Shown: positions 3,147 to 62,097, counted from the first letter of the stretch. The stretch is DNA of 64,000 nt from Bacillota bacterium (GCA_040753155.1 JBFMEU010000002.1:5633-69632), one strand, 5' to 3'. The notes: generated from the sequence alone by a model not told the origin. Program-made: numbers and translations.

Positions 3147-5630
3147 GTGAAAGACCGTTACGATTTTAAAGATCTTGAGGTCAAGTGGCAGCGCCGCTGG
3201 CATGAAGACAAGCTCTACGAGGCGCCTGATTTTTCCGGCCGGCCCAAGTACTACTGCCTGGAGATGTTTCCTTACCCCTCGGGCAAGCTGCACATGGGTC
3301 ATGTCCGGAATTACTCCATCGGGGATGTGGTGGCCCGGTTTAAAACCATGCAGGGGTTTCACGTGCTGCACCCCATGGGCTGGGACGCCTTCGGGCTGCC
3401 CGCTGAAAACGCCGCCATCAAGCACGGAAACATGCACCCGGCCCAGTGGACCATAGACAATATCAACACCATGCGCGATCAGCTCAAGCAGCTGGGGATT
3501 AGCTATGACTGGAGCCGGGAGGTGGCCACCTGCCACCCGGGCTACTACAAGTGGACCCAGTGGCTGTTCCTGCAGCTGTACCGCCGCGGCCTGGCCTATA
3601 AAAAGAAGGCGGCCGTGAACTGGTGCCCCTCCTGCGCCACGGTGCTGGCCAACGAGCAGGTAAAGGAGGGTATTTGCGAGCGCTGTAAGACTGATGTGGA
3701 GAAGAAAGAGCTGGAGCAGTGGTTCTTTAAGATCACCGACTACGCCGGGCGTCTGCTGGAGGATTTGGAAACCCTGCCGGGCTGGCCGGAAAAGGTCAAG
3801 ATCATGCAGGAACACTGGATTGGCCGCAGCGAGGGGGCGGAAATCAAATTCACCATTGACGGCCATGACGATGAGTTCATGGTCTTCACCACCCGGCCGG
3901 ACACGGTGTTCGGGGTCACCTATATGGTGCTGGCCCCAGAGCACCCCCTGGTGGAAAAGCTCATTGCGGGCAAGGAGCAGGCCGGTCAGGTGCGGGACTT
4001 TGTAAATAGAGTGCGCAACCTGAGCGAGATTGCCCGGACCTCCGTTGATGCGGAAAAGGAGGGCATCCTCACCGGCGCTTACTGTATTAACCCCCTGAAC
4101 GGCGAAAAAATTCCCATCCTGGTGGCCAACTACGTGCTGCTGGAGTACGGCACCGGCATGGTCATGGGCGTGCCGGCCCACGACCAGAGGGACTTTGAAT
4201 TTGCCCGGAAGTACAAGCTGCCCGTCCGGGTGGTCATCCAGCCCGAGGGTGTGGAACTGGACCCGGAAACCATGACCGGGGCCTGCGACGGCGAGGGGGT
4301 TATGGTTAATTCCGGCCAGTTTAATGGCGTCCCCAGCCAGGAGGGGATCCGCAAGGTTACGGAATACCTGGAGCAAAACAATCTGGGCCGGGGCCTGATC
4401 AACTACCGCCTGCGGGACTGGCTGATTTCCCGGCAGCGTTACTGGGGCGCCCCCATTCCCATTATTTACTGTGATCAGTGCGGCGCCGTACCGGTTCCCG
4501 ATGCCGACCTGCCGGTAATGCTGCCCCTGGAGGTGGCCTTTGAGCCCACCGGCCGCTCGCCCCTGAATGACAGCCCGGAATTTGTCAGCGCCGCCTGCCC
4601 CGGCTGCGGCGGGCCCGGCAGGCGGGAAACCGACACCATGGACACCTTCATGTGCTCCTCCTGGTACTACTACCGCTACACCAGCCCCCGGAACGAGGAG
4701 GCTGCCTGGGGCGGGGAGCAGGTAAAATACTGGCTGCCCGTGGACCAGTACATCGGCGGGGTGGAGCACGCCATCCTGCACCTGCTGTACAGCCGCTTCT
4801 TTACTAAGTTTCTTTATGACGCGGGCCTGATAGACAACCAGGAGCCCTTTACCAACCTGCTCACCCAGGGCATGGTGCTCAAAGACGGGGCCAAGATGAG
4901 CAAGTCCAAGGGCAATGTGGTCAGTCCCGAAGACATCGTGGGCCGCTACGGGGCCGACACCGCCCGGCTGTTCATCCTGTTCGCCGCCCCGCCGGAGCGG
5001 GACCTGGAGTGGAGCGATCAGGGCGTGGAGGGGTGCTACCGTTTCCTGAACCGGGTCTGGCGCCTGGTCCAGCCCCTGGCGGCAACCCTGCAGAGTAGCA
5101 GCGGCAAACCCAACGCCAACCTGGTGGGGGTAAACCGGGAAATGCGCCGGCTGACCCACCTGACCATCAAGAAAGTCACCGGGGACATTGGCAACCGGTT
5201 TAACTTCAACACCGCCGTCAGCGCCATCATGGAGCTGGTCAACGGCCTGTACCAGTACCGGGAGGTGCCGGAAACCGACCGGGACCCGGCGGTTCTCAAG
5301 GAGGCGGTGGAGTCCATGCTGCTCCTGCTGGCCCCCTTCGCCCCCCACGTGACCGAGGAACTGTGGGAGGTCACCGGCGGCGCCGGCAGCATTCACCTCC
5401 GGCCCTGGCCCGGGTTTGACCCGGCGGCCATGGCGGAGGACGAGGTGACCATAGTGGTGCAGATTAACGGCCGGGTCCGGGACCGGGTGCTGGCGCCCGC
5501 CGGCATACCGGCCGAAGAGATGAAGGAGCAGGTCATGGCCCAGCCCAGGGTTCAGGAACTGATTGCCGGCAAGCAGCTGGTCAAGGTCATCCCGGTGCCC
5601 GGGAAGCTGGTTAATATAGTGATTAAGTAA
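3147..5630 (+). CDS. leuS: Leucine--tRNA ligase
   Basis: 827 aa; HMGH ([10 protein letters not shown]) and KMSKS motifs; SD gggagg before GTG. Confidence 0.97.
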
Positions 5631-7120: not shown

Positions 7121-7217
7121 TGGAGGGGAGAAGTCGGAGTCGAACCGGACTCCCGCCTGGATCGCAGACAGGCCAACGGGTTTGCAGCCCGCGGGGGCCA
7201 CCGGACCCTTTCTCCCC
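7121..7217 (-). tRNA. tRNASec-like tRNA with cysteine identity (anticodon GCA, discriminator U73, 8-bp acceptor stem, long extra arm)
   Basis: Minus-strand sequence: GGGGAGAAAGGGTCCGGTGGCCCCCGCGGGCTGCAAACCCGTTGGCCTGTCTGCGATCCAGGCGGGAGTCCGGTTCGACTCCGACTTCTCCCCTCCA. Acceptor GGGGAGAA/TTCTCCCC. Anticodon loop CTGCAAA. Extra arm GCCTG/CAGGC. T loop GGTTCGACTCC. CCA is encoded. Confidence 0.8.
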
Positions 7218-7361
7218 GCTATATCTATTCGCGGGGTAAAATAAATATCCTTTATGAAAATGATTTGATTTATTTATGCCGAAGGGTAAAGCTAGAAGAG
7301 TTTTTAATAAGCCCATAATTAGTTAATTCGAGGGAGCAAATTTAATGGTTGAACTCCCAAC

Positions 7362-8276
7362 TTAACGGTAGTGTCTGGACAGTTCGGAGGCGTAAGTGGC
7401 TCCAAGGCTGTCCTTGTTACTTTTCAGCCAACTACTCAGGCGGGTTTGGCCTGTGGGCTCAGCACCAGAAACCAGCAAGTTGGCCATTAACCCTTCCACT
7501 TCATCACGGGTCAGTACCACGTCATTGACCAACAGTCCAACTAGACTGGACATGTATAGGGCCAGGTCAGGATTTAGATGAACAATTCCAGCCCGGCTGC
7601 GAACCACTTCCCTGATTAGCCGGACCAGTTCATTAAAAGTGAAAACTTCCGGACCGACTGCGTCAATAGCTATGTTTTCCGCTTCCCCGGCCGTCCTAAC
7701 GGCCAAATCAGCCATGTCTTCCACAAAAACCGGCTGCAGCCGGTAATCCCCCTTGCCGGGAACGGCAAACAGGGGAAACCTTCGTAAGAGCCAGGCAATA
7801 TTGTTAATCAAGATGTCTTCAGGACCAAAGATTACCGTGGGCCGGAGGATGGCATAGGATAGTGAGGACCTGGCAATTGCCTCTTCCAGCAGGCCCTTCC
7901 CTTTAAAATAGGGCAGTGGTGAGGCAGGGGAGGCATTTGCTATGCTGATGTGCACGATTCTTTGCAGGCCGGCCTCTTCCGCCGCCCTGATTAGAGCCAG
8001 AGTGTTTTTTACCGCCTGGTCATAGTTGGTTTGAGCATAGGGAAAGCGAACCCAATAGGTGTTGAAAAGGGTTGTTGCTCCCTGCATGCTTTTTGCCAGC
8101 TCTCCGGGACGATCAAACTTATAAGGAACTGCAGTTACCCGCTGGCCGAAGGGGTTGGGCTTACCCGGGCGTCCGGTAAGGGTGAGAACATCCTTCCCCC
8201 TGGCCAGCAGGTGGCGTGTAATGTATTTACCGGTATAACCAAAGGCTCCGGTAACAACATTTAATTCACCTGGCAT
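7362..8276 (-). CDS. NAD(P)H-binding SDR-family (NmrA/NDUFA9-like) protein
   Basis: N-terminal Rossmann motif VVTGAFGYTGKYITRHLL; 304 aa. Confidence 0.7.
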   Translation of the reverse strand: MPGELNVVTGAFGYTGKYITRHLLARGKDVLTLTGRPGKPNPFGQRVTAVPYKFDRPGELAKSMQGATTLFNTYWVRFPYAQTNYDQAVKNTLALIRAAEEAGLQRIVHISIANASPASPLPYFKGKGLLEEAIARSSLSYAILRPTVIFGPEDILINNIAWLLRRFPLFAVPGKGDYRLQPVFVEDMADLAVRTAGEAENIAIDAVGPEVFTFNELVRLIREVVRSRAGIVHLNPDLALYMSSLVGLLVNDVVLTRDEVEGLMANLLVSGAEPTGQTRLSSWLKSNKDSLGATYASELSRHYR

Positions 8277-10814: not shown

Positions 10815-10849
10815 ACAAAGCATTAAAAATTCCGGATTGCTGTCCGGGT

Positions 10850-10911
10850 GAGTCAATGGGGACGGTTCCGGGTGACTCACGAGAGTCACCCGGAACCGTC
10901 CCCATTGACTC
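10850..10911. repeat. D palindrome D1
   Basis: gagtcaatggggacggttccgggtgactc-acgag-agtcacccggaaccgtccccattgactc. Confidence 0.9.
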
Positions 10912-10925
10912 AAAGGCTTACGTTT

Positions 10926-11169
10926 TCAATTTTGATACTTGCTCCAAAACCTCGGCCCAGGTATTGGGCTCCACCATGCGCAGGCGCCTGTCCCTGATCC
11001 GGTAATCCACCCCCGGAATAGCTTTTTTATACAGTACGCCGGGGCCGTTACCTTTACCAGACGGTACAGCCCCAGGACATTGCGGGGCCCCAGATTGCTG
11101 TCCACCTCGGAGGAATAAATCCAGATCAGCCGGGGCAGTTTGACGACGGTGGAGGGGGTGAGCAAGTTA
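10926..11169 (-). pseudogene. Truncated, frameshifted duplicate of the 3' end of the LCP-like gene at 13106-13879
   Basis: Roughly 85-90% nucleotide identity, by eye, to 13106-13345. The similarity stops exactly at the A2 junction (gagcaagtt|agccc). Confidence 0.8.
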
Positions 11170-11285
11170 GCCCTTTGAAACCCGCATCTGTAGGCGGCGG
11201 GTTTCAAAGGGCGGTTAAGTCCAGTATGGACTCGGCTAACATTCAGAGGGGGTTGAATCCCTCTCTGAATGAAGTCTCGTTCAAC
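11170..11285 (+). mobile_element. A element copy A2 (5'-truncated)
   Basis: ...gggcggttaagtccagtatggactcggctaacattcagagggggttgaatccctctctgaatgaagtctcgttcaac, directly followed by H-element sequence catggcgtttccgaag. Confidence 0.8.
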
Positions 11286-12207: not shown

Positions 12208-12441
12208 ATGCGTGTTTCAGCCACCGAACTTAAGATGAACATGGGCAAGTACATAGAACGCGCCGCCATCGAAGATATCATTATCACCAAAAATGGAAGG
12301 GACGTCGCGCTCCTCACCAATGTCGAAAGCAAAAAGAAAGACGCGCTTAAATCCCTGCGCGGCATCATAAAGGGCGCTGATATCACCCGCGATGAAATCC
12401 GTGAAGTTAGGCTGGGTAGGTACAATGAAAATCCTAATTGA
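12208..12441 (+). CDS. Type II antitoxin (Phd/YefM-like or VapB-like)
   Basis: MRVSATELKMNMGKYIERAAIEDIIITKNGRDVALL; SD acaggag. It overlaps the PIN gene by 17 nt. Confidence 0.75.
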   Translation: MRVSATELKMNMGKYIERAAIEDIIITKNGRDVALLTNVESKKKDALKSLRGIIKGADITRDEIREVRLGRYNENPN

Positions 12442-12835
12442 CACTAATGTAATCATTGATTACCTTGCCGACCGGACGCCCTTCGCGGACCATTCTGAAC
12501 GGGTGTTGGCGCTCTGCGAGAACGGCAAGGTCACCGGTTTGGTAACCGCCAACGCTATAACCGATATCTACTATGTGCTGCGCAAAGTGGTCGGAAGAGA
12601 GAAAGCGCTGGAGGCGATTCGCACGCTTTGTTCCATCCTGGATATCACGGATGTGGTGAAAGCTGATATCCTAAACGCGAGGGAACTAGATATGCACGAC
12701 TATGAGGATGCACTGGCCGCACAGTGCGCAAAGCGGATCAAGGCTGAATATATTGTGACGCGCAACAGCTCCGACTATGCTAACTCCCCGGTTCCCGCAA
12801 TAGAACCATTCGCCTTTCTCACGCAGTTCCAATGA
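12425..12835 (+). CDS. vapC: PIN-domain toxin VapC
   Basis: MKILIDTNVIIDYL...; the acidic residues have PIN-like spacing. Followed by hairpin acgccgcc-gtaa-ggcggt-tttc. Confidence 0.85.
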   Translation: MKILIDTNVIIDYLADRTPFADHSERVLALCENGKVTGLVTANAITDIYYVLRKVVGREKALEAIRTLCSILDITDVVKADILNARELDMHDYEDALAAQCAKRIKAEYIVTRNSSDYANSPVPAIEPFAFLTQFQ

Positions 12836-12862: not shown

Positions 12863-12997
12863 TTTATCACTGAACTAATCCGCCCTAAGACCCCCGCCTC
12901 TGTAGGCGGCGGGTTTCAAAGGGCGGTTAAGTCCAGTATGGACTCGGCTAACATTCAGAGGGGGTTGAATCCCCCTCTGAATGAAGTCTCGTTCAAC
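12863..12997 (+). mobile_element. A element copy A3 (full length)
   Basis: TTTATC-actgaactaatccgccctaagaccc...ggcggttaagtccagtatggactcggctaacATTCAGAGGGGGttgaatCCCCCTCTGAATgaagtctcGTTCAAC. Confidence 0.85.
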
Positions 12998-16394: not shown

Positions 16395-16595
16395 TGGCCC
16401 GTCAAGTCAGGCGGCTTACCCGTTCCAGCTACAACAGAATGATTGCCGGAGTTTGCGGCGGGCTGGGCGAGTATTTTGGTTTGGACCCCACGGTGGTGCG
16501 GGTGGGCTATATAGTGTTTTCCGTACTTTCAGCGGCCTTTCCGGGCATTTTTGTTTACCTGCTGGCCTGGCTGATTGTACCCAGGGATGATTTCT

Positions 16596-16597
<2 letters not shown>
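16395..16597 (+). CDS. PspC-domain membrane protein
   Basis: RLTRSSYNRMIAGVCGGLGEYFGLDPTVVRVGYIVF. ATG 16395 follows gtgggag; the ORF track starts at 16319. Confidence 0.8.
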
Positions 16598-16832
<235 letters not shown>

Positions 16833-16843
16833 TAAAAAAAGGG

Positions 16844-16890
16844 AGAGGCTGCTATTCCCGCTTTGCGGAAAAGTTGCCTCTCCCTTTTTT
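16844..16890. terminator. E-family bidirectional terminator hairpin (E1)
   Basis: aaaaaaagggagaggctgctattcccgctttgcggaaaagttgcctctccctttttt. Confidence 0.75.
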
Positions 16891-16896
16891 AGTTGC

Positions 16897-17238
16897 TTAT
16901 GTTCCTGGTGAAAAGGTTGGGTTCTTAGCTTGGGCTTCCTTATCTTTTACGTGCAGCAGGGTTTCACATTGGGGGCACTGGTAGGTGCCAATGTGTCTGA
17001 CCACCCTGTTTTCATTGCCGCAGGCGGGGCAGCGCAGGTTGGTAACTTCGAAAACGGAGCCCTGAACCAGCAGGAAAAATCCAAAAATACCAGCAATAAG
17101 TCCAATGATCGGCGGCGGTACATTAAGTAGAGCGCCTACTCCCACCGTAAGCAGAATAGCTCCGGTGATAATTAGGATCCGGAATGCCTCCAGCATGATT
17201 TCCAAGCCCTTTGATTTGACCTCACCGGGACGTGCCAA
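16897..17238 (-). CDS. Membrane protein with C-terminal zinc-ribbon (CPAC...CPQC)
   Basis: Two TM segments, then RCPACGNENRVVRHIGTYQCPQCETLL. Confidence 0.55.
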   Translation of the reverse strand: MARPGEVKSKGLEIMLEAFRILIITGAILLTVGVGALLNVPPPIIGLIAGIFGFFLLVQGSVFEVTNLRCPACGNENRVVRHIGTYQCPQCETLLHVKDKEAQAKNPTFSPGT

Positions 17239-18684: not shown

Positions 18685-21030
18685 TTACCTCCTTGGTGTG
18701 CCGGGTGTAGTTTTCACCTCTCCCAGGCGCCTTTCCAGGCGCCCCAATTCAGCCAGGCAGGCAGTTGTTTTTTGGCCGGCCGGCCTTTGTTCCAGCGCCT
18801 CCCGGAGATCTTTAAGCACTCCGGCCAGGGGCGCGGCCAGTTGTGAACCGGCTGCAAGCCGGATTGCCTCAATCAGGTGACGGAAGTCCTTGTCCCGGGG
18901 ATTTACGGATGCCCGGCGGGCCGAGAGGAAGAATAACCGCTCGTCGGCGCGGAGTGTGGTCGGGGATAGGCTCTCCCGGATGTAGTTCCTGACTTTTTCC
19001 CTTTCCCGGGGGCTCAGGGTGTCAGCAAAATTGATCACCAGCATGAGCCGGGCCGGGCCCTGCTGCAGGCTGCCGCCGCCCGGCCCCTGCCGGATTAGCC
19101 GGCTCAGGGCCGGCAGTTGGTCCCGGTCGGCGGTGTTCAGCACGTGCCTGGCGTTTAAGAAAAACAATACTGACTGGTCCCCCTTGTTGAACGAGATTTC
19201 ATTCAGAGGGGGATTCAATCCCCTCTGAATGTTAGCCGGGTCCATACTGGACTTAACCGCCCTTTGAAACCAGCTGCCTGCAGAGGCCGGGGTCTTAGGG
19301 CGGATTAGTTCAGTGATAAAACTTGAGGTTGTTTCCCGGTGCCTGCGGTGAACCGAGTCCAGGCCCGGTGTGTCAATCAGGACCAGGCCGCTCAGCAGTT
19401 CCGAGGGATGGGTGATTTCAACCCGGCTCAGCCGGAAGCTGTCCGGCCAGGCCAGGTGGCGTACGAGGGCCAGTTTGCCGGCGGCGGTATCCAGGCTCAG
19501 GGTTAAGGTATTTTCCTCCCGGAAGGTAACCTGGACGGCAACCGGCAAATCGGCGGTTATTCTTGTGGCCGGAACCGCCTGAAACAGGGTGGGCGCCGTG
19601 TTTAGCCCCGGCTGCCCGGCCAGGCCGGCGGCAAAGAGCCGGGCGGCGCTGTGGAGTTGATTCAGCAGTTGGTATTTACTTACCTTCTTGCGGCCGGCCT
19701 GGCTAATCAGCTCCAGACGGCCCAGCTCAGGCCCGGACTCCGGCTTCCCCAGCCAGCCGGTAAGAGCCTTGACTTCCTCCCGGCAGTACAGGGCCGCTTC
19801 TCCGTCCAGATGGATAACCGGCACGTCAATCTGCAGCGGATAGTGGAGGGTGGCCTGTTTAACCTGACCCTGCCTGACCCGGGTCAGGCAGGAGGTGGTG
19901 GGGCCGTCTCCGGTGGGCAGGATTTCCTCACCCAGCATGACGTTGATAAAAGTTGTCTTGCCGGAGGAAAAGCCCCCGGCTATAGTCACTGGAAATGCCC
20001 CTTGCTCCAGCCGGCGCCTCAGGGCGTCAGCTTGCCCGGTGGCCGGCAGGCCGGTCATTGAAGGGTCGGCGCAGAACCGGTCCAGCAGCTCCAGCAGGGA
20101 CCGCCTTACCTGGATCAGGCCCTTATTGGCCTGGTCCGGGTGGGCCGGCGGCTGATATTTCAGCCGGCCCTCCCGGGCCGGGCCGCTCAGGTTGCGGCGG
20201 GCGGCAATTCTGGCCCCGGCCCGGGACTGCAGGAGTTCCCCGGCCTGTAAAATTGAGGCCGCCCTTTGCTTGAGGTCCCATAAATCAGCCAGGAACTCCA
20301 GGTCGCCGGGCCGGGCCAGGGTGGTCTTCAGGGCTTTGGGGATAGCCTCGTCCATAGTCCGCAAATTCCGGTTGAGTTCCTCAATCCGGCGGGCGGCTGC
20401 CTCCACTTCCAGCAGGGTGCGCAGGGAGTTTACAGCTGCAGGGTTGGTAATGTCAATGGCCAAGGGCTGCAAGCCGGCTTTGAAAATTTGCCGCAGGCAG
20501 GCTGCGGTAACCCCCGGGGCAGAGTCGTCCGGATGGCCGGTGTTATGATTCAAGATGAAAATAATGTCCCGGGGATTAATTTGGCGCCGCCGGGCCAGTT
20601 CCTCCAGAAACTGCTTGCCGGCATTATCAAGGCCCCGCTGGTGCAAAAGGAAGAGCGCCAAATCGGCGCCGGCCGCCGCCTCCATGGCGGCCGCCCGGTG
20701 CTCCGGGCTGGTGTCGAAGCCAGGTGTGTCCAAGAGCAGGCACTTTTGCAGCAGCCTGCAGGGCAGAGCCACCTCCCGTACCCTCCGGGCGCGGGCCGGG
20801 CCGGAGACGGCGGGGCCATAAACATACTTGACAGTCACCATGGTGGTGGGAACCACATCCACTGGTGCGACATAATTTTCCAGCAGGGCGTTAATTAAAG
20901 TGGATTTGCCGGCGTTATAGGGGCCGGCAACAGCCACCGTCGGCAGGCGGACTCCGGCAGGCCAGTTCTCCAGCAGCATGTCCGCCTGGCGAATAAAGTT
21001 TTCTGCCGCCGTCATGGTATATACCTCCAA
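18685..21030 (-). CDS. Tandem-GTPase dynamin-like protein (BDLP/DynA-like), carrying an in-frame A-element insertion
   Basis: Module 1: G1 GPYNAGKST and G3 DTPGFD. Module 2: G1 GGFSSGKTT, G2 region PTGDGPTTSCLT, G3 DTPGLDS and NFAD. 781 aa. Confidence 0.75.
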   Translation of the reverse strand: MEVYTMTAAENFIRQADMLLENWPAGVRLPTVAVAGPYNAGKSTLINALLENYVAPVDVVPTTMVTVKYVYGPAVSGPARARRVREVALPCRLLQKCLLLDTPGFDTSPEHRAAAMEAAAGADLALFLLHQRGLDNAGKQFLEELARRRQINPRDIIFILNHNTGHPDDSAPGVTAACLRQIFKAGLQPLAIDITNPAAVNSLRTLLEVEAAARRIEELNRNLRTMDEAIPKALKTTLARPGDLEFLADLWDLKQRAASILQAGELLQSRAGARIAARRNLSGPAREGRLKYQPPAHPDQANKGLIQVRRSLLELLDRFCADPSMTGLPATGQADALRRRLEQGAFPVTIAGGFSSGKTTFINVMLGEEILPTGDGPTTSCLTRVRQGQVKQATLHYPLQIDVPVIHLDGEAALYCREEVKALTGWLGKPESGPELGRLELISQAGRKKVSKYQLLNQLHSAARLFAAGLAGQPGLNTAPTLFQAVPATRITADLPVAVQVTFREENTLTLSLDTAAGKLALVRHLAWPDSFRLSRVEITHPSELLSGLVLIDTPGLDSVHRRHRETTSSFITELIRPKTPASAGSWFQRAVKSSMDPANIQRGLNPPLNEISFNKGDQSVLFFLNARHVLNTADRDQLPALSRLIRQGPGGGSLQQGPARLMLVINFADTLSPREREKVRNYIRESLSPTTLRADERLFFLSARRASVNPRDKDFRHLIEAIRLAAGSQLAAPLAGVLKDLREALEQRPAGQKTTACLAELGRLERRLGEVKTTPGTPRR
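19186..19320 (-). mobile_element. A element copy A4, inserted in frame (135 nt = 45 codons) in the dynamin-like gene
   Basis: gttgaacgagatttcATTCAGAGGGGGattcaatCCCCTCTGAAT...ggcggattagttcagtGATAAA. It is translated as ...LIRPKTPASAGSWFQRAVKSSMDPANIQRGLNPPLNEISF... Confidence 0.85.
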
Positions 21031-21096
21031 TTGGTTATACTGTTATATATTTACTGTGATCAGGCTGTAAATATACCGAAAATAGTTACCCGCTTG

Positions 21097-21241
21097 GTAA
21101 CTATTCAGGAGTCGGGAGTCAGGAGTCGGGAGTCAGGAGTCGGGAGTCAGAAGTCAGGAGTCAGAAGTCAGGAGTCAGGAGTCAGAATGAGAAAACCGGC
21201 GAAAACATTACTTCTGAATTCTGAATACCTGAATAAGTAAC
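21097..21241 (+). repeat. H element copy H6 (minimal: 11 heptamers, 8 codons, 3' arm)
   Basis: gtaactattc-(aggagtc/gggagtc/agaagtc)x11-agaatgagaaaaccggcgaaaacatt-acttctgaattctgaatacctgaataagtaac. Confidence 0.9.
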
Positions 21242-21335: not shown

Positions 21336-21474
21336 ATAAAGAAGACTTGGTTCAGGTGGAGTTTTAACCCATACGTTGGGGACATTCCTGTCCTCAGAGA
21401 AATACCCAAGCTTCAGCAGGTGTGTCCCCTTTCCTTATGCGAGGGCGGGGTCTTACAGGCTGTGCGAAGATAAA
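21336..21474 (+). repeat. C element copy C1
   Basis: ataaaGAAGACTTGGTTCAGgtggagttttaacccatacgttGGGGACAttcctgtcctcagagaaatacccaagcttcagcaggtgTGTCCCCtttccttatgcgagggcggggtCTTACAGGCTGTGCGAAGATAAAg. Confidence 0.85.
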
Positions 21475-22870: not shown

Positions 22871-23767
22871 ATGGCCAGCCAAGATAGTAGGCGTAGTGTT
22901 GGCGGTCTTTTGGCCGCAGCCCGGGCTTACCTGAGGGAATGTGGCTCGGAGAGCCCCGGCCTTGATGCCGAGGTGCTTCTGGCCCACTGCCTGGGGGCCG
23001 GCCGGCTGGATCTGTACCGGGCGCCGGACCGGATCCCGGACAGCGGCCAGGCTTCCGGGTACCTGGATTTGATTGCCAGGCGCGGCCGGGGGGAACCGGT
23101 GGCCTATCTGACCGGACATAAGGAGTTTATGGGGCTCGACCTGGCGGTCGGGCCTCCTGTGCTGATTCCCCGCCCGGAAACCGAGCTGCTGGTGGAGCAG
23201 GCCCTGGAACTGCTGGGCTTATCCCTGGCGGAAAGACCGGGCGGCCGGCTGGCGGTGGATGTGGGCGCCGGCAGCGGGGCCATTGCTGTCAGCCTGGCGG
23301 TTTTTATGCCCCGGGTGCGGGTGCTGGCCACCGATATATCCGGGGAGGCCCTGGCCGTGGCCCGCCGCAATGCGGCCCGCCACGGGGTGGCAAGGCAGGT
23401 TTCCTTTTTTCAGGGAGACTTGCTGACCCCTCTGACTATACCCGCCCTGCAGGGGCAGGTGGACCTGGTGGCCGCCAACCTGCCCTACATCCCGGCCGGT
23501 GACCTGGAGGCTTTGCCCCGGGATGTCCGGGCCTACGAGCCCCGGCTGGCCCTGAACGGCGGTCCTGACGGCCTGTCCCTCTACCGCCGGCTGGTGCCCG
23601 ATGCCGGCAGGCTGCTGCGGCCCGGCGGCTTTTTGCTGATGGAGATTGGCCCCGGCCAGGGGCGGGCCTGCCTGGGCCTGGTACCGGCCCCCGTCTGGGA
23701 GAGTGTGCTGCTGCCCGACCTGGCCGGGCGGGAGCGTCTGGTGGTGGCAGTTAAAATGAGTCAATAG
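22871..23767 (+). CDS. prmC: Release-factor glutamine N5-methyltransferase
   Basis: VDVGAGSGAIAV SAM motif and the NPPY-type motif (here ANLPYIP). Immediately follows prfA. Confidence 0.88.
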   Translation: MASQDSRRSVGGLLAAARAYLRECGSESPGLDAEVLLAHCLGAGRLDLYRAPDRIPDSGQASGYLDLIARRGRGEPVAYLTGHKEFMGLDLAVGPPVLIPRPETELLVEQALELLGLSLAERPGGRLAVDVGAGSGAIAVSLAVFMPRVRVLATDISGEALAVARRNAARHGVARQVSFFQGDLLTPLTIPALQGQVDLVAANLPYIPAGDLEALPRDVRAYEPRLALNGGPDGLSLYRRLVPDAGRLLRPGGFLLMEIGPGQGRACLGLVPAPVWESVLLPDLAGRERLVVAVKMSQ

Positions 23768-23818
23768 GGACGGTTCCTGGTGACTCGCGCGAGTCACCCG
23801 AAACCGTCCCTATTGACT
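23759..23818. repeat. D palindrome D2, overlapping both convergent stop codons
   Basis: agtcaatagggacggttcctggtgactcgcgcgagtcacccgaaaccgtccctattgact. Confidence 0.9.
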
Positions 23819-24492
23819 TACAGCAAATTGGTTCCCGCGTGCCAGGCGGTGGCGGCGCCGATAAACATGACCGCCAGCCCGGTGACTGCCGCCAGGCGGG
23901 TCCAGGCGCGGCGGCTGATAAAATCCCCGGCCAGGTGGGAAACCTTGAGGAAAACCAGTCCCACACCAATCATGGCCAGGGCGGCCCCGGCACCAAAGGC
24001 CAGCACCACGCCCAGGCCCGCGGCCAGCGTTCCGGCACTGATGGATAAAAGCAGCGCCGCCAGGGCCCCGGGGCAGGGCATCAGCCCGTTCATGAAACCC
24101 AGCAGGACCAGGGTTGAAAGGTCCAGGGGGCGGTCTTGCTTGCTCAGGGAGAAATGATGGTGGTTGCAGCAGGGCTTGCGCCTGGGCAGCAGCCGGTAGC
24201 CCACCGCCACAATCAGCAGGCCGGATAAAAGCTGCAGCCACAGCCTGATCCGGTCCGGGGTCAATTCGGTGCCGGTGGCCACCAGGGCTGCCGCCGAGTG
24301 GGCCGTCACCGCCAGCAACACCACCACCAGGGTGTGGGTGGCGGCGGAGATAAGCCCCAGCAGAACAGCATGTATTGCCCGGCCCCGGGAAAGGACCAGG
24401 TAGGCCCCCATCACCCCCTTGCCGTGGCCGGGTTCCAGAGCGTGCAAAGCTCCCAGGCCAAAGGCGGAAAAAAGATAAAGCAGGTAGCTCAT
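23818..24492 (-). CDS. NicO/UreH-like metal (Ni/Co/Zn) transporter family membrane protein
   Basis: LHALEPGHGKG motif, His/Cys-rich loop KPCCNHHH, and GFMNGLMPCPGAL. Next to zur-znuACB. Confidence 0.55.
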   Translation of the reverse strand: MSYLLYLFSAFGLGALHALEPGHGKGVMGAYLVLSRGRAIHAVLLGLISAATHTLVVVLLAVTAHSAAALVATGTELTPDRIRLWLQLLSGLLIVAVGYRLLPRRKPCCNHHHFSLSKQDRPLDLSTLVLLGFMNGLMPCPGALAALLLSISAGTLAAGLGVVLAFGAGAALAMIGVGLVFLKVSHLAGDFISRRAWTRLAAVTGLAVMFIGAATAWHAGTNLL

Positions 24493-24527: not shown

Positions 24528-24756
24528 GATAAAGAAGACTTGGTTCAGGTGGGGTTTTAACCCATACGTTGGGGACATTCCTCCGAAGGAGGTGTGTCCC
24601 CTACCCGCTAAACCTTAGTCGCACTTATTTCGAGCTTACAGCCTGTTAATCCCATTAGTTGGGGACATTCCTGTCCTCAGAGAAATACCCAAGCTTCAGC
24701 AGGTGTGTCCCCTTTCCTTATGCGGTGGCGGGGTCTTACAGGCTGTGCGAAGATAA
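24528..24756 (+). repeat. C element copy C2 (double-module version)
   Basis: Module 1 contains GGGGACAttcctccgaaggaggtgTGTCCCC. An internal cttacagcctgt then leads to module 2, GGGGACAttcctgtcctcag...caggtgTGTCCCC. Ends cttacaggctgtgcgaaGATAAA. Confidence 0.85.
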
Positions 24757-24757
24757 A

Positions 24758-24866
24758 CCGCAAGTACGAACAGGTTCGTCTTCTGCCATACCAGTAATCC
24801 TCAAACGTTTTCGCTGGTTTTCTCATTCTGACTCCTGATTCCTGACTTCTGACTCCTGAGTAGTTA
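24758..24866 (-). repeat. H element copy H7 (5' half only, truncated at the TTTATC site by C2)
   Basis: The reverse complement reads gtaataactactc(aggagtc..)agaatgagaaaaccagcgaaaacgtttgaggattactggtatggcagaagacgaacctgttcgtacttgcgg|tttatc. Confidence 0.85.
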
Positions 24867-24927
24867 TTACGTTTAAACATATTCAGAGCTCGTACACCTT
24901 TATGACGGCGCCCCTGGATTATTTTTC

Positions 24928-27252: not shown

Positions 27253-28131
27253 GTGGATTACATGTTTGAGTACGAGTTTATGGTCCGGGCCATGCTTGCC
27301 GGCCTGGTGGCCGGCATAATTTGCCCCGCGGTAGGGGTTTTCGTGGTTATGCGGCGCTATTCCTTTATGGCCGATACCCTGGCCCATGTTTCCCTGGCCG
27401 GGGTGGCGGCGGGCGCCCTGCTGGGCGTATATCCCGCCGTTACCACCCTTGGCTTTGCCATGGCCGCCGCCACAGTCATTGAGAAGCTGCGCTCCGGGCC
27501 AAGGCTGTACGGCGAGGCCGTGCTGGCGCTGATGATGAGCGGCGGTCTGGCCCTGGCCGTGGTGCTGATCAGCCTGTCCCGGGGCATGAGCATTGACATC
27601 TTCGGCTATCTTTTTGGCAGCGTCCTTACCGTCGGCCCGGGTGACCTGTGGCTGATCGCCGGCCTGGGCTGCGCTGTTCTGGCCGTGATAATATTATTCT
27701 ACAAGGAGCTCTACTACATATCCTTTGATGAAGAGGCAGCCCGGGTGGCCGGCCTGCCGGTGGATCGTTTGAATTTTATCTTTGTGCTGCTGGTGGCGGT
27801 TACCGTGGCGGTCTCCATGCGCATTGTGGGGACCCTGCTGGTCAGCGCCCTGATGGTGATTCCCGTGCTCACCGCCCTGCTGGTGGCCGGCAGCTTCCGC
27901 AGCGCCTTCATAACCGCCGTATTCCTGGGAGTGGTATCAGTTGCCCTGGGGCTTACCGGCTCATACTACCTGGGCATTGCCGCCGGCGGCGCCGTAGTCC
28001 TTACCGCCCTGGTCTTTTTCGTCCTTACCCTGAGCGGCAAACAGCTGCGCCAGGCCTGGCAGCGCCGCCTGTTGGCCCCGGGCGCCCCGAAAAAGGTGAA
28101 AGAGGAACTGGTAACAGGGGATGGCTCTTGA
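27253..28131 (+). CDS. znuB: Zinc ABC transporter permease
   Basis: 292 aa, polytopic, ABC-3 family pattern (FDEEAARVAGLPV). Confidence 0.88.
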   Translation: MDYMFEYEFMVRAMLAGLVAGIICPAVGVFVVMRRYSFMADTLAHVSLAGVAAGALLGVYPAVTTLGFAMAAATVIEKLRSGPRLYGEAVLALMMSGGLALAVVLISLSRGMSIDIFGYLFGSVLTVGPGDLWLIAGLGCAVLAVIILFYKELYYISFDEEAARVAGLPVDRLNFIFVLLVAVTVAVSMRIVGTLLVSALMVIPVLTALLVAGSFRSAFITAVFLGVVSVALGLTGSYYLGIAAGGAVVLTALVFFVLTLSGKQLRQAWQRRLLAPGAPKKVKEELVTGDGS

Positions 28132-28191
28132 GTCAAGGGGGACGGTTCCTGGCGACTCACGTGAGTCGCCAGGAACCGTCCCCCTTGACTC
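28130..28191. repeat. D palindrome D3 (perfect 31+31 nt), overlapping the znuB stop codon
   Basis: gagtcaagggggacggttcctggcgactcac|gtgagtcgccaggaaccgtcccccttgactc. Confidence 0.95.
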
Positions 28192-28206
28192 AAAACGGAG
28201 GTGGAC

Positions 28207-31099: not shown

Positions 31100-31246
31100 C
31101 TTACAGGCTGTACGAAGATAAAGAAGACTTGGTTCAGGGGGGGGTTTAACCCATACGTTGGGGACATTCCTCCGAAGGAGGTGTGTCTCCTATCCGCTAA
31201 ACCTTAGTCGCACTTATTTCGAGTTTACAGCTTGTACGAAGATAAA
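31100..31246 (+). repeat. C element copy C3 (module 1 bounded by two copies of the 23-nt end sequence)
   Basis: cttacaggctgtacgaagataaa-gaagacttggttcag...GGGGACAttcctccgaaggaggtgTGTCTCC...tcgcacttatttcgag-tttacagcttgtacgaagataaa. Confidence 0.85.
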
Positions 31247-33073: not shown

Positions 33074-33721
33074 TTACGTGAAGTGTTGAAAAAGTGCTTT
33101 GTCATATTTCTGGGTTGTACTCAAAATGTAGATGTCATAATAATTTCTTGGGCGTGTGCTGAATATGCTACGGTTTAGAATCGTCTCGACTTTCTCTGCC
33201 ATAACTGTTTCAATATTGTAGCCCCAGAGACGGATACGGACAGATTCGTCAAAAATACCGCTGAATTCATAGGGAACAGCGGACGGCGTCATCACATCCC
33301 CGGCAGAAATATCAATGGAAAGCGGCGTTACGATAGTGTCATACACGGCATTCATTCTCACACGAAATCCGCCGTAGCGGTCATCCTTACGGATGGGGAT
33401 GACGGAGACGACATTAAATTTCACATCATCATTTAAGTTAATACTGCAGATGCTTTGAACCGCTTGTGTTATCTGCCCTTCCGTCAGGGGCAGATCGCGC
33501 AGCGTAGCGTCCAGATCCATGGTCGAGCGGGTATCCAAACCCACGATGGCCGCAACAAGCATTCCGCCCTTAATTATGAATTTTTCCTGATATTCTGATT
33601 TGGACAGACGCTCCAAAAAGCGTTCGAACATGTAGTTCTGCAAAACTACCTGAGCCGCAATGTTATTCTATTTTGCATAGCGGTTGATGCGACCTTTCAG
33701 GCTTATGGCCTTGGAACTCAT
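33074..33721 (-). pseudogene. AbiEii/AbiGii-family nucleotidyltransferase toxin, with premature in-frame TAG and probably C-terminally short; no AbiEi partner
   Basis: MSSKAISLKGRINRYAK*NNIAAQVVLQNYMFERFLERLSKSEYQEKFIIKGGML... The TAG is at 33668-33670. An A element abuts the start codon. Confidence 0.7.
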
Positions 33722-33732
33722 AGTAGTACATC

Positions 33733-33850
33733 TCCGCCCTAAGACCCCCGCCTCTGTAGGCGGCGGGTTTCAAAGGGCGGTTAAGTCCAGTATGAACTCG
33801 GCTAACATTCAAAGGGGGTTGAATCCCCCTCTGAATGAAGTCTCGTTCAA
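33733..33850 (+). mobile_element. A element copy A5 (5'-truncated); contains the stop codon of the MCP gene
   Basis: ccgccctaagacccccgcctctgtaggcggcgggtttcaaagggcggttaagtccagtatgaactcggctaacattcaaagggggttgaatccccctctgaatgaagtctcgttcaa. Confidence 0.8.
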
Positions 33851-35457: not shown

Positions 35458-35682
35458 CTATTACCACCCCGCTGACTCCTGAGTAGTTGCGTTTTTTCTA
35501 AGTTGTTATTAAAAAAACCGGCTGTTGCCGGAATTAAAAGGGAGAAGGGATATCTTGCGCGAGTTCTCATTAAATAAAGCCTTTGTATCGAAGACTTTAT
35601 TTAATCACTGCTATAATAACGAATTGTTTTTAAGCTGCAATTAAGGTTTATCATAATATTGGTTAAGGAAGTGTAAAATTTT

Positions 35683-36043
35683 TCAGAAGTCAGAAGTCAG
35701 AAGTCAGAAGTCAGGAGTCAGGAGTCAGGAGTCAGAATGAGAAAACCAGCGAAAACATCTGAAGATTTACTGGTATGGCGGAAGTCTTAATAGGCGCCTG
35801 TTTGCACTTGCGGTTCAACGTTTATCACTGAACTAATCCGCCCTAAGACCCCCGCCTCTGTAGGCGGCGGGTTTCAAAGGGCGGTTAAGTCCAGTATGGA
35901 CTCGGCTAACATTCAGAGGGGGTTGAATCCCCCTCTGAATGAAGTCTCGTTCAACCATTGCAAGAGGTTAGTAAATTGCTGGAAGCATATTCTCGGGGCA
36001 TTCTGAATCCTGACTTCTGAATTCTGAATACCTGAATAGTAAC
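35683..36043 (+). repeat. H element copy H8, interrupted by A element A6
   Basis: (agaagtc/aggagtc) array, then agaatgagaaaaccagcgaaaacatctgaagat...cttgcggttcaacgTTTATC[A6]cattgcaagagg...ggaagcatattctcggggcattctgaatcctgacttctgaattctgaatacctgaatagtaac. Confidence 0.9.
35821..35955 (+). mobile_element. A element copy A6 (full length, nested in H8)
   Basis: tttatcactgaactaatccgccctaagaccc...ctctgaatgaagtctcgttcaac. Same sequence as A3. Confidence 0.9.
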
Positions 36044-36074
36044 AAATTATTAAAGCAAATTTGTCCGTAAGACT

Positions 36075-36190: not shown

Positions 36191-36284
36191 ATAAAGAAGA
36201 CTTGGTTCAGGCGGGGTTTTAACCCATACGTTGGGGACATTCCTTATGCGAGGGCGGGGTCTTACAGGCTGTGCGAAGATGAAA
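36191..36284 (+). repeat. C element copy C4 (short recombinant form)
   Basis: ataaagaagacttggttcaggcggggttttaacccatacgttggggacattcct|tatgcgagggcggggtcttacaggctgtgcgaagatgaaa. Confidence 0.8.
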
Positions 36285-37673: not shown

Positions 37674-38237
37674 TTATATTTTTATAACTTCTTTTTGAAG
37701 TAAATGTTCTACAATCTCAAAAAATGAATACTCATCTCTCCTTACAAAATGCCTGCATACAGTACCTGCTAGAGCATCTGTGACTTGAATGCCTTTTTCT
37801 TGCTCTGAGTTTAGCCATGTAATATTAAGATCTGGCATTGCCAAATCTTTTTTTATTTTTCTAATATGCTTGTCCATGTGTTTTGGGCATTGTACTTGGT
37901 CAACTGCTATAATAATATCTTTTTCTGAAATGTCACAGTGTTGTAGTAGTTTTACTAAACTCCTCACGTAATTATTTTTATGACTTACATAATTTGTATT
38001 TATAATAGCCCAAAAATATATTTTTTTATTGGCAATTTCGTTTAGTATTTTTTTCCTTTCCCTTTTACTAGCGTTACTATCCTTGTATTCATTTGCCTTA
38101 AAACCTTTGATTAAGCGTTTCATATAATTACGCCATTTTTTTACTATTAATTCAGCGTCTTTGTAGTCGTCTATTCTAATAATTGCAAAAACCCACTGGT
38201 TAGCATGCCCTGACTCATCAACATAATAATATGCCAA
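37674..38237 (-). CDS. DUF3800-family protein on an AT-rich islet
   Basis: MAYYYVDESGHAN... is the DUF3800 N-terminal (I/V)DESG motif. 187 aa; GC is far below the flanks. Confidence 0.6.
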   Translation of the reverse strand: MAYYYVDESGHANQWVFAIIRIDDYKDAELIVKKWRNYMKRLIKGFKANEYKDSNASKRERKKILNEIANKKIYFWAIINTNYVSHKNNYVRSLVKLLQHCDISEKDIIIAVDQVQCPKHMDKHIRKIKKDLAMPDLNITWLNSEQEKGIQVTDALAGTVCRHFVRRDEYSFFEIVEHLLQKEVIKI

Positions 38238-40157: not shown

Positions 40158-40574
40158 ATGTACAAACCAAGCCCGATAAGAGATATAGACGAACAATTCC
40201 GGCGTACGGCGGTAATCACCGGGATGATCCTGGCGGCTGCCGGTACGCTGTTGATTTGGGATCCCCAAAACCCACTGGTCCGGGGCTTTCTGCTTGGTGG
40301 TTTGTGCGGCCTGTTCAACGCCAAAACTCTGGTCAGGCGGATGCACGCGATGGCCGGCCTTGACGCCAGGCGGGCCAACAACCTCATGAAGCAGGGCAGT
40401 TTTATGCGTATGGCTTTGGTAATCGCCCTGGCCCTCCTGGCCAGCCGAACCGAAGCTATCAGCTTGTTTGGAGTAGGCGCGGGTCTTTTAACCGTTACCC
40501 TGATTACGGCAACGGATGCGCTGTTCAGCCTGGGCAGGTATTTTGCGGCGCGCGGCGCCGTGGATAGAATATAA
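40158..40574 (+). CDS. atpI: ATP synthase protein I
   Basis: 138 aa membrane protein between atpZ and atpB. Confidence 0.7.
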   Translation: MYKPSPIRDIDEQFRRTAVITGMILAAAGTLLIWDPQNPLVRGFLLGGLCGLFNAKTLVRRMHAMAGLDARRANNLMKQGSFMRMALVIALALLASRTEAISLFGVGAGLLTVTLITATDALFSLGRYFAARGAVDRI

Positions 40575-40729
40575 AGAAGACTTGGTTCAGTCGTACTTAT
40601 TTCGAGTTTACAGCCTGTTAATCCCATTAGTTGGGGACATTCCTGTCCCCAGAGAAATACCCAAGCTTCAGCAGGTGTGGCCCCTTTCCTTATGCGAGGG
40701 CGGGATCTTACAGGCTGTGCGAAGATAAA
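40571..40729 (+). repeat. C element copy C5 (inside the atp operon, between atpI and atpB)
   Basis: ataaagaagacttggttcag|tcgtacttatttcgagtttacagcctgt-taatcccattagttGGGGACAttcctgtcc...caggtgTGGCCCC...cttacaggctgtgcgaagataaa. The atpI stop lies in the left junction. Confidence 0.85.
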
Positions 40730-54228: not shown

Positions 54229-54247
54229 TCCCTGAAAAAGATATTTG

Positions 54248-54448
54248 GTTATTATTCAGGTATTCAGAATTCAGGAGTCAGGATTCAGAATGGACCGTAT
54301 AGCTCATACTTCGGAAACGCCATGGTTGAACGATAAACGGCAAGTACGAACAGGCGCGCCTTCTGCCATGCCAGTAAATCTTCAAATGTTTTCGCTGGTT
54401 TTCTCATTCTGACTCCTGACTTCTGACTCCTGACTCCTGAGTAGTTAC
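54248..54448 (-). repeat. H element copy H9 (40-codon ORF remnant with the apparently ancestral VYRST codons)
   Basis: The reverse complement encodes MRKPAKTFEDLLAWQKARLFVLAVYRSTMAFPKYELYGPF*. Arms are ctcaggagtcaggagtcagaagtcaggagtcagaatg and cattctgaatcctgactcctgaattctgaatacctgaataataac. Confidence 0.9.
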
Positions 54449-54616
54449 GATACTTGTCATATTTCGCGCCGGGCGCCCTGGATACCTGCCGGGAAAAGCA
54501 GCCTGTCCCCCTTATTTCCAATTGATGTTTACCAGTTCAGCGAATTAATTGCGGCCTGGCGCATATACATTTATTAGCTTAAATCCAAGCCCCAATAGAT
54601 TCGGGGAGGTAAGGCG

Positions 54617-56137: not shown

Positions 56138-56312
56138 GCCTTCTAGTGAGCAGTGGGCAGTATTTCCCGCTATTTTTTTATTGTATTGTTCTTGCTCATA
56201 ACTTACAATGTTTGTGGTTGGAAAGGTTGCGATGATTTAATTGTATATATTCAGTGAAACCGGTGTTAAGGCACTGCGGTATCACCGCTCGCTCCAGTGC
56301 TCCGCGCAGAAG

Positions 56313-56425
<113 letters not shown>

Positions 56426-56667
56426 GGGTGCTGTTACCGGCTATGCTGCGTCGTTCGCTAACGATAACGCCGTGCCTCCACCTGGTTTGCTGAATGCTTA
56501 CATTTAATTACAGTGCTAAAGCGGCTTCACCCCCGCGGGGCAATTTGAGGGCACTGGAGCTGTAAGTTGAATTTTTAAGGGGGATTCGTAAGTATCAAGT
56601 AGCAGTTACGAGGAAATTGCTTCCTGGCGGGAACGAAACAGGCGCCTTAATCGTCTATACAATAGGA

Positions 56668-56880
56668 GTAACTACTCAGGAGTCAGAAGTCAGAAGTCAG
56701 AAGTCAGGAGTCAGAATGAGAAAACCAAGGTTCTGTTGAAGAATGCCGATATTACTTGATGCTTACGAAGGATCTTGGATACGGTGATATTTACGAAACA
56801 AAACTTCTCTAATTGCTGGAAGCATATTCTCGGGTCATTCTGAATACTGACTCCTGAATTCTGAATACCTGAATAGTAAC
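56668..56880 (+). repeat. H element copy H11 (internally deleted, same deletion type as H2)
   Basis: gtaactactc(aggagtc/agaagtc)x4agaatgagaaaaccaaggttctgttgaagaatgccgat...ggaagcatattctcgggtcattctgaatactgactcctgaattctgaatacctgaatagtaac. Confidence 0.9.
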
Positions 56881-56913
56881 CAATAGGATGCTATTGTATT
56901 CAAGAACAAAGGG

Positions 56914-61032: not shown

Positions 61033-61094
61033 GTCAGTGGGGACGGTTCTTGCTGACTCTCTGAGTCAGCAAGAACCGTCCCCACTGACTCACC
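61030..61094. repeat. D palindrome D7, overlapping the protease stop codon
   Basis: gtgagtcagtggggacggttcttgctgactc-tct-gagtcagcaagaaccgtccccactgactcac. Confidence 0.9.
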
Positions 61095-61203: not shown

Positions 61204-62097
61204 TTAATTTAGTTCCGCCTTTAGCGTACGAATGGTCTCTTGGTCCAAGCCGGTGATTTCAGCAACCAGTTCTTCCGGCAAGCCCTTTTTCAGGGCCGCC
61301 CTGGCGGTATCCAGCCGTCCTTCTTTAATGCCTTCTTTAATGCCTTCTTTAATGCCTTCCTTAATACCTTCTTTAATGCCTTCCTTAATACCTTCTTTAA
61401 TGCCTTCTTCCCTGATCCACTGTTCGATCTGGGTCATTCTCAACACCTCCAGGAGCCTTTTTTTGTAGTTTTCGGACATGAAACGGTCGGTCACGGCCAC
61501 CAGCGCGCCGATGACGAATGTTTTAAATTCCCCTTCCATGTTCTTTGCCAGTTCGGCCGCCTGGATCGCCATCTCTTCTTCGGTAAAACTGCTTTTCATC
61601 AGGGGCAGGAAGATCAGCTTTAATATTTCTTCTTCGTTAAGCGGCTCTTTCTTTTCGATCTTTTCGTGCAGTTTGCGGTATTCTTCGTCTCCGTTATATT
61701 CTTTCATGTAGACGTTGGTTACTTTGTAGGAGATGGAGCCTCTTGCCAGGCTGTCCGGAGCTTTTTCGATCCTTCCGGAGTAAACCACGGCGGTGTTCAC
61801 ATCCCGGTAGTCTTTGTTGATCAGCCTGGCGTCGTAAAGGGCAAAGCGCTTTAACGCTTCTCCGGCAACCTTGGTCATAAACTCCAGGTGCAAAAGGGTG
61901 TTGTCTTCAAGCAGGAAGATATAGTCGGTCCGGTTTTCTTTTATTTCCACAACGGGCAGGACAGTGGGGATCACTGCCGTTATCCTGGGGGTGTTCAGGC
62001 CGAATATCTTCAGTGTTCTGTCCTTGAATATTTCGACCACTGCTTTCATGATAACGTCGTTTGCCTGCCTGGTTACCTCCGCTTCCAATACCAGCAC
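61204..62097 (-). CDS. Rpn-family recombination-promoting nuclease / putative transposase (PD-(D/E)xK, YhgA-like)
   Basis: DVIMKAVVEIFKDRTLKIFGL...EIKENRTDYIFLLEDNTLLHLEFM fits the Rpn/YhgA core pattern. The C-terminal part has the (EGIK)n repeat. Confidence 0.65.
   Translation of the reverse strand: MLVLEAEVTRQANDVIMKAVVEIFKDRTLKIFGLNTPRITAVIPTVLPVVEIKENRTDYIFLLEDNTLLHLEFMTKVAGEALKRFALYDARLINKDYRDVNTAVVYSGRIEKAPDSLARGSISYKVTNVYMKEYNGDEEYRKLHEKIEKKEPLNEEEILKLIFLPLMKSSFTEEEMAIQAAELAKNMEGEFKTFVIGALVAVTDRFMSENYKKRLLEVLRMTQIEQWIREEGIKEGIKEGIKEGIKEGIKEGIKEGIKEGRLDTARAALKKGLPEELVAEITGLDQETIRTLKAELN
61321..61408. repeat. 12-nt tandem repeat (ttctttaatgcc/ttccttaatacc, ~7 units) encoding (EGIK)n in the Rpn gene
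   Basis: The repeat is read directly from the sequence. The translation is REEGIKEGIKEGIKEGIKEGIKEGIKEGIKEGR. Confidence 0.9.

Follow-up and report, generated by a model that had tools for sequence, protein, structure and literature searches.

The five C-elements in the analysed window, a stretch of 64 kb, are most plausibly decayed copies of a non-autonomous, IS200/IS605-like (PATE-type) mobile element that is transposed as a single strand, a reading to which we assign a probability of about 0.6. That the C-element is a selfish mobile repeat is very probable; the odds on the specific IS200/IS605-type mechanism are about even. The repeat family formed by C and a homologous sister family, S, was previously undescribed and is of a conventional kind. 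A first-pass annotation of the window had presented the C-elements as a mosaic repeat family acting at the RNA level; the mosaic description holds, the copies being deletion and recombination derivatives, and the functional reading as an RNA signal does not.

All five copies lie on the + strand, at 21336-21474 (C1), 24528-24757 (C2), 31100-31246 (C3), 36191-36283 (C4) and 40571-40729 (C5), with the modular make-up originally claimed for them. The left end GAAGACTTGGTTCAG occurs exactly five times in the window and GTTGGGGACATTCCT six times without mismatch. The 23-nt right end has five matches at one mismatch or fewer, compared with none in 100 shuffles. Pfam assignments (L31, FUR family, RpiB, dCMP deaminase, AtpI and the ATP synthase A chain, subunit a) agree with the neighbouring genes as first named. 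C1, located between the divergent genes of a dynamin-family GTPase (-) and rpmE (+), is a deletion derivative that comprises the left end, the 5' arm of hairpin 1, a type-2 GGGGACA hairpin, the 3' arm of hairpin 2 and the right end. Its proposed recombinant origin is supported, as C1 equals C2 less the 90 nt separating two GTTGGGGACATTCCT repeats. C1 scores 33 bits with model R1, and its folding z values are -1.4 as RNA and -0.3 as single-stranded DNA (ssDNA). C2 is the most complete copy (RNA z -3.5) and, as had been stated, possesses both modules: both hairpins are present, and a GGGGACA hairpin is nested in each, of type 1 at 24571-24601 and of type 2 at 24661-24712. The copy occupies the centre of a heptamer-repeat palindromic element, and its start lies 36 nt from the start codon of the - strand gene at 23818-24492 and 242 nt from the FUR-family gene. 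C3, between a low-molecular-weight (LMW) phosphatase gene and rpiB (65.6 bits, RNA z -3.2), had been described as bounded by two copies of the 23-nt end. The additional right end is indeed present (31100-31122), and it belongs to a lost upstream tandem neighbour; the copy proper (31118-31246) carries a type-1 GGGGACA module in hairpin 1 and a collapsed hairpin 2. C4 is the shortest derivative (21 bits, RNA z -1.1), with the larger deletion at TTCCT that had been noted, extending from GGGGACATTCCT to TTCCTTATGCG, and it ends 15 nt upstream of the dCMP deaminase start codon. C5 lacks hairpin 1 and has a type-2 GGGGACA hairpin in hairpin 2 (RNA z -3.4); its insertion point in the atpI-atpB spacer is the atpI stop codon, the TAA inside the flanking ATAAA. 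Three metagenome contigs (L151, L213 and L231) match parts of the window with 98.5-99.8% identity. The orthologous C2 copies of related strains (L123, L197, L211 and L223) contain unequal numbers of GGGGACA modules at this one site, and therefore the mosaic changes in place.

A profile derived from alignment A1 revealed six copies of the sister family S in the window, two on the + strand and four on the - strand, which the first-pass annotation had overlooked and which bring the related copies to 11 in 64 kb. The order of an S copy is TTGAACGAGACTT, CATTCAGAGGGGG / CCCCCTCTGAATG, TTAGCCGAG, a mini-hairpin, hairpin 2 and CAGTGATAAA; GG/CC of the C stem is changed to CA/TG, and the S ends show only a weak 6-nt TTGAAC/GTTCAG match as an inverted repeat. 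All six are matched over their full length, at about 50-68 bits, by a covariance model built from C-family copies only, and they outscore most of the window C copies on this model. The + strand copies lie at 2719-2852, between rsfS and a + strand gene and co-oriented with the flanking genes (67.6 bits), and at 19187-19320, inside and antisense to the gene of the dynamin-family GTPase (18685-21030, -). On the - strand, the copy at 11158-11284 is degenerate in its 3' part and anti-oriented (49.8 bits), and that at 12863-12996 is complete and located between convergent genes (68.2 bits; ssDNA folding z -8.7 and -8.4 on the two strands). The copy at 33727-33850 directly follows the stop codon of an MCP gene, is co-oriented and has a truncated right end (62.3 bits). 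The last, at 35821-35954, lies upstream of an MCP gene between divergent genes (68.2 bits), within a heptamer-repeat element that has the same ATAAAC/TTGAAC core as the C2 site.

Scanning metagenome contigs with a 19-mer from the left end yielded at least 120 loci. A 15-mer left-end scan of a genome collection returned mostly chance hits among the matches listed, the true copies among them being from Desulfotruncus arcticus DSM 17038, a Peptococcaceae MAG and a Clostridiales MAG. The metagenome contigs, D. arcticus and the two MAGs provide at least 128 true copies at no fewer than 121 sites. Three viral contigs contain the left-end 19-mer with the rest of the element absent, and these were dismissed as chance matches. 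The modal length among the copies listed is 121-122 nt. In alignment A1 the canonical unit of ~121 nt consists, in order, of ATAAAGAAGACTT, hairpin 1 (arms GGTTCAGGTGGGG / CCCCAnCTGAACC), the linker TTAGYCGCACTTATTTCGAG, hairpin 2 (ACAGCCTGT-TAAT-CCCCGACC ... GGGCGGGG-TCTT-ACAGGCTGT) and GCGAAGATAAA, with C-family ends CTTCGCACAG... / ...AAGTCTTCTTTAT. Some lineages have a different hairpin 2 but the same ends, hairpin 1 and linker. The intact unit has no coding capacity; it is composed of two long imperfect hairpins, one per end, and a conserved single-stranded linker. Terminal inverted repeats were not found, since the left end ATAAAGAAGACTTGG and the right end CTGTGCGAAGATAAA are not reverse complements. 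The foot of hairpin 1 was all that RNAalifold retrieved from a MAFFT alignment, and the structure was then specified by hand and tested by pair counts. The 33 specified pairs are 90% paired on A1, compared with 26-51% after a shift of the partners by one to three columns, and 14 of the 33 show compensatory changes. Folded as ssDNA, the consensus has z values relative to shuffles of -11.1 and -8.9 for the two strands. The window copies are thus derivatives with insertions and deletions, not the prototype.

The GGGGACA hairpin is a separate REP-like palindrome, an independent family nested into the loops of C-elements. No GGGGACA hairpin is present in 68 of the 111 end-defined copies among those listed, and the remainder contain one to three, either in the loop of hairpin 1 or in place of the tip of hairpin 2; in some copies these hairpins are themselves nested, symmetrically on both arms. 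The same palindromes, with the same flanks (...GTT-GGGGACA...TGTCCCC-TTTCC), occur outside any C-element, solitary and in tandem arrays (L013 ~5170-5260; L136 ~3730-3860; L228 ~7170-7300 and ~8020-8100; L232 ~3700-3790). The CCUCC...GGAGG pair in the type-1 loop, to which a Shine-Dalgarno (SD)/anti-SD-like character had been attributed, turns out to be the inner stem of the palindrome, which reads CCTC/GAGG or CCTG/CAGG and is found in either orientation elsewhere. Additional insertions of ~300 nt were observed inside hairpin 2 in L229 (~1300-1770, in the oriented copy from 6018, reverse strand), L187 (742-1160) and L218, one of them with CAGAAGT heptamer repeats of its own. Other small elements seem to land preferentially in hairpin loops.

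The REP-like nature of the nested palindromes, which are also solitary and in tandem arrays, together with the high copy number (11 members in 64 kb) and the conserved hairpins, would be compatible with a host-domesticated REP-like element that serves in protein binding, at transcript ends or in mRNA protection and is spread by a RAYT-type enzyme. Such a role is highly improbable: the copies decay freely through deletion, no RAYT-type gene was seen, scans gave no terminator- or promoter-like site in or beside the element, and its length and two-hairpin design with conserved ends are unlike REP/REPIN units. The candidates specifically scanned for were an internal promoter and, on the opposite strand, a terminator formed by hairpin 1 and the TTCTTTAT tract; neither was found. 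The likeness to REP/BIME of enterobacteria and BOX of Streptococcus pneumoniae lies in the mosaic of a few hairpin modules in variable number, and the GGGGACA hairpin resembles REP in being solitary, tandem or nested. In contrast, the C backbone is a two-hairpin unit with non-palindromic conserved ends and a defined target rather than a cluster of short palindromes.

Mobility of the C/S unit is documented by empty sites. The atpI-atpB spacer measures 32-37 nt in four relatives (64-81% AtpI identity), compared with 189 nt in the window, and excision of GAAGAC...GAAGATAAA, which ends in GATAAA, from the window spacer restores the ancestral ATATAAATAAAAATCTCA to within one base. Independently assembled contigs of the same organism (L237, L238, L249 and L250) stop at or just beside C5, which suggests that the repeat fragments metagenome assemblies. 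For C2, paralogous heptamer-repeat elements without the C insertion are present at 16660-16827 (-), with the empty site GGATAAACGTTGAACCGCAAG, and at 54253-54420 (+), with GGTTGAACGATAAACGGCAAG; a third paralogue without a C2-type insertion is found in L137. The S copy at 19187-19320 is inserted in frame in the dynamin-family gene, where it adds 44 residues after the DTPG motif and before the next strand. A 98%-identical protein (with a 5-residue deletion) shares this insertion, which a 67% orthologue and seven more distant homologues lack; among named organisms, Pelotomaculum, Desulfofundulus and Desulfotomaculaceae have the nearest homologues of the protein. With the gene strand as reference, the site is TTTAT[CACTGAAC...GTTCAA]CAAGGGG when filled and TTCATCAAGGGG when empty. 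Over a longer stretch, ...GACTTCATCAAGGGGGAC... in the orthologue corresponds to ...AGTTTTAT[CACTGAAC...CTCGTTCAA]CAAGGGGGAC... in the window. Thus, the S element was inserted directly 3' of TT(T/C)AT with a duplication of at most 2 nt. In-frame insertion into a protein gene, tolerated as extra residues, recalls the Rickettsia palindromic elements; C/S differs in that it is mainly intergenic, with one in-frame case here, and unrelated in sequence. Head-to-tail tandems with one common ATAAA occur in L143, L198, L204, L218 and L220.

A target motif is recognizable at these junctions. On the opposite strand, 49 of the 95 independent copies listed have TTTAT abutting the right end, and approximately 35 more have a pentamer that departs from it by one base (TCTAT, ATTAT, TTGAT, GTTAT, TTCAT, TTAAT or CTTAT). 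Base composition is random immediately past this pentamer, and the boundary is sharp. At the empty sites, TTTAT or TTCAT stands precisely at the junction. In the S family the pentamer is present at one end only, the other end being ...GTTCAA. A bcr1-like or classical MITE-like repeat, mobilized by a site-specific or cut-and-paste enzyme that duplicates a TTTAT/ATAAA target, would account for the ATAAA on both sides of C copies and for the single ATAAA at both C empty sites (C2 and C5). The right end of C itself terminates in ATAAA, and because this end equals the target motif, the absence of duplication and a 5-bp ATAAA duplication look the same at those two sites. Several findings make the MITE-like alternative unlikely. 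Terminal inverted repeats are absent, unlike in a classical MITE, the S insertion in the dynamin gene is without duplication, and ATAAA is confined to one end of S copies. The six D. arcticus copies listed all have [A/T]TAAA as the left pentamer, and in 5/6 the right one differs from it, a pattern not expected of target duplication.

The bcr1-3 repeats of the Bacillus cereus group are likewise tied to TTTAT, which their insertion is thought to duplicate (PMC6199540, PMC6542083), and bcr1 is reported in a bcr review to have plasmid copies. Like C/S, bcr1-bcr3 are intergenic Firmicute repeats (100-400 bp) with a predicted secondary structure, TTTAT-linked mobility and tens to more than 100 copies per genome. 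They differ in host (Bacillus cereus group versus Desulfotomaculia) and in target duplication, which was not seen for S with its motif-free end. A blastn comparison with the plasmid collection detected no similarity to the element, which would argue against sequence homology with bcr1. The phage collection likewise contained no similarity to the element.

According to the mechanism that we favour, the ~121-nt unit would move as a single strand with the help of a Y1/HUH transposase acting in trans, and would insert immediately 3' of a TTTAT-like pentamer without target duplication. The active strand would be opposite to the described orientation, such that the described right end would correspond to the transposon left end and the flanking ATAAA to the target motif read backwards. 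As the copies show, insertions are mostly intergenic and occasionally in genes in frame, and head-to-tail tandems form. Nested REP-like GGGGACA hairpins enter the loops, after which segments are lost by deletion between short repeats, which yielded the five different recombinants of the window. Effects on neighbouring genes would be a by-product of insertion and not the reason for the element's presence. No Y1 transposase or TnpB gene with matching ends was found in the 64-kb window, and a tblastn search with an approximate IS200 TnpA query gave no match in the window or in the fetched element-bearing loci. Folding with RNA parameters favours the described strand (83/104 copies) and not the proposed opposite active strand. 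With a proxy that combines local GC skew and gene majority and is confounded with gene strand (r = 0.89), 36 of the 56 loci listed fit insertion biased to the lagging-strand template and 20 do not, a bias that is no more than weakly visible; the five C copies of the window run against the expected bias, as GC skew is positive on the + strand. The left- and right-end hairpins of IS608 resemble each other, and those of C/S are mutually unlike in sequence. Pairing of guide and target by the rule that holds for IS608 was also considered: the linker has AAATA opposite the TTTAT end, but the match is inconsistent across the S and L130 families and amounts to no more than a lead.

The closest known parallel is provided by the gene-less PATE derivatives of the IS605-family element ISGst2 of Geobacillus stearothermophilus, for which TTTAT is the experimentally defined target/TAM (PMC10055086). 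Neither PATEs nor C/S have inverted terminal repeats, and in both a hairpin lies close to either end, insertion is 3' of a TTTAT pentamer and gene-less copies are numerous in a genome. Absence of target duplication, as observed for the sister family S, would be a further shared property. In contrast to PATEs, C/S has hairpins that are mutually unlike and no evident replication-strand bias, and no cognate tnpA/tnpB was found in the window or the fetched loci. C differs further by ending in its own target pentamer, which leads to tandem arrays, and by having no Rfam match, hence none to any transposon guide-RNA family that Rfam may include. A more far-reaching version would make C/S a new single-strand-transposed lineage with a guide-RNA-like scaffold for a TnpB/IscB-like nuclease, or would have the GGGGACA mini-element target hairpin loops; we regard either as quite unlikely. 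In the former case the linker and hairpins would encode a scaffold that ends at the transposon boundary and is read into the flank, the nuclease being supplied in trans. In the latter, loop targeting by GGGGACA would constitute a new insertion specificity.

The C-elements were originally interpreted as cis-acting RNA elements, namely processing, stability or translation signals in the 5' UTRs and operon spacers of housekeeping genes. Several observations speak for such a signal: each of the five window copies has the sense orientation relative to its downstream gene, the hairpins covary, and the described strand is the better folded one by RNA parameters in 83 of 104 copies (among the copies listed). 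Across whole elements the wobble pairs are also asymmetric (175 GU versus 50 A.C). This asymmetry shrinks in the canonical stems (GT 47 versus AC 37, mostly at two inherited positions), and it was therefore not used to choose between RNA and DNA. The strand difference in folding is largely inherited from common ancestry. Against an RNA signal, the element is missing from the atp operons of four relatives, the neighbouring genes are mutually unrelated, and structure is lost in C1 and C4, which fold no better as RNA than shuffled sequences, with C2, C3 and C5 reaching only about -3.2 to -3.5. The covariance model built from C copies also matches S copies, one of which is antisense within coding sequence. 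At the Rfam gathering score, Rfam 15 identified only tRNA-Sec in the window, and at E<=5 there was nothing meaningful for C2 or for a canonical copy. The selenocysteine tRNA gene lies at 7125-7217 (-; RF01852, 51 bits).

The claim that the elements are always co-oriented with the gene downstream is not borne out beyond the window. For C1, C2 and C4, which have divergent genes on either side, co-orientation follows automatically, and consequently only C3 and C5 are informative; the S copies of the window are on both strands in mixed gene contexts. An orientation census was carried out in three ways, with score thresholds, with a test for SD, start codon and ORF, and with symmetric masking of the element. 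Among the copies listed, sites with same-direction genes comprised 27 co-oriented and 26 anti-oriented cases with symmetric masking, and the gene-caller version gave 27:22. A masking variant that discarded genes with a stop codon in ATAAA put co-oriented cases at a disadvantage and was not retained. The subfamily bearing GGGGACA gave 10:5, the window included, among the copies listed. Among the 72 copies listed, a gene start with an SD and an open frame is found no more than 40 nt from the right end in 17 and from the left end in 16; that is, either end abuts gene starts equally often. At loci of at least 4 kb, the element is co-oriented with the coding majority in 21 of the 56 listed. Tight junctions do show a bias that would favour an RNA signal, with a co-orientation of 18:7 at residual spacers of <=150 nt versus 9:19 at wider ones among the copies listed (Fisher p = 0.006, the 150-nt threshold having been set after the data were seen). 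In element-free tight spacers, ATAAA occurs 78 times and TTTAT 51 times on the sense strand, an excess due largely to TAA stop codons with a following A; the upstream stop codon is inside ATAAA in 12 of the 120 copies listed. Target availability alone thus predicts ~60% co-orientation in tight spacers, and the strandedness of the target motif largely predicts the tight-junction bias. One of the two orientations may have a polar effect within operons. An RNA signal is, on this evidence, very unlikely.

Read in the preferred way, as decayed single-strand transposon derivatives, C/S represents no new kind of system and adds Desulfotomaculia to the hosts of gene-less transposon derivatives that have hairpin ends and target TTTAT. 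The repeat is widespread in Desulfotomaculum-like bacteria. The more than 100 copies, with their covarying hairpins, nesting, tandems and an in-frame insertion, offer material on recognition and decay. Because the element abuts start codons, it could be annotated erroneously as a leader or regulatory RNA. Neither the left-end 15-mer GAAGACTTGGTTCAG nor a paper combining Desulfotomaculum with miniature inverted repeats was found in the literature searched.

C/S accounts for a noticeable part of the intergenic DNA in the source genome, besides other repeat families. Tandem arrays of the heptamers GAGTCAG/CAGGAGT and the complement CTGACTC form inverted pairs around a core of ~170 nt and represent a third repeat family, palindromic in form, with arrays at 1581-1810, 16595-16900, 21078-21240, 24800-24876, 35656-36047, 54237-54460, 56290-56435 and 56811-56884. 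A near-perfect palindrome of 66 nt, TGAGTCAATGGGGACGGTTCC...GGAACCGTCCCCATTGACTCA, is present in four copies (10849-10914, 23757-23822, 28129-28194 and 61029-61092), mostly just 3' of gene ends, and this family is possibly terminator-associated. Positions 480-620 are occupied by a long pure array of approximately 18 GAGTGTG heptamers. A tandem repeat with a 12-nt period, CCTTCTTTAATG, at 61307-61419 falls within the ORF 61204-62097 (-), where it would encode a repeated tetrapeptide. Genes for a PIN-domain protein (12392-12835), an AbiEii toxin nucleotidyltransferase (33074-33643) and a DUF3800 protein (37674-38237) adjoin repeat copies and look like small accessory-gene islands among the housekeeping operons.
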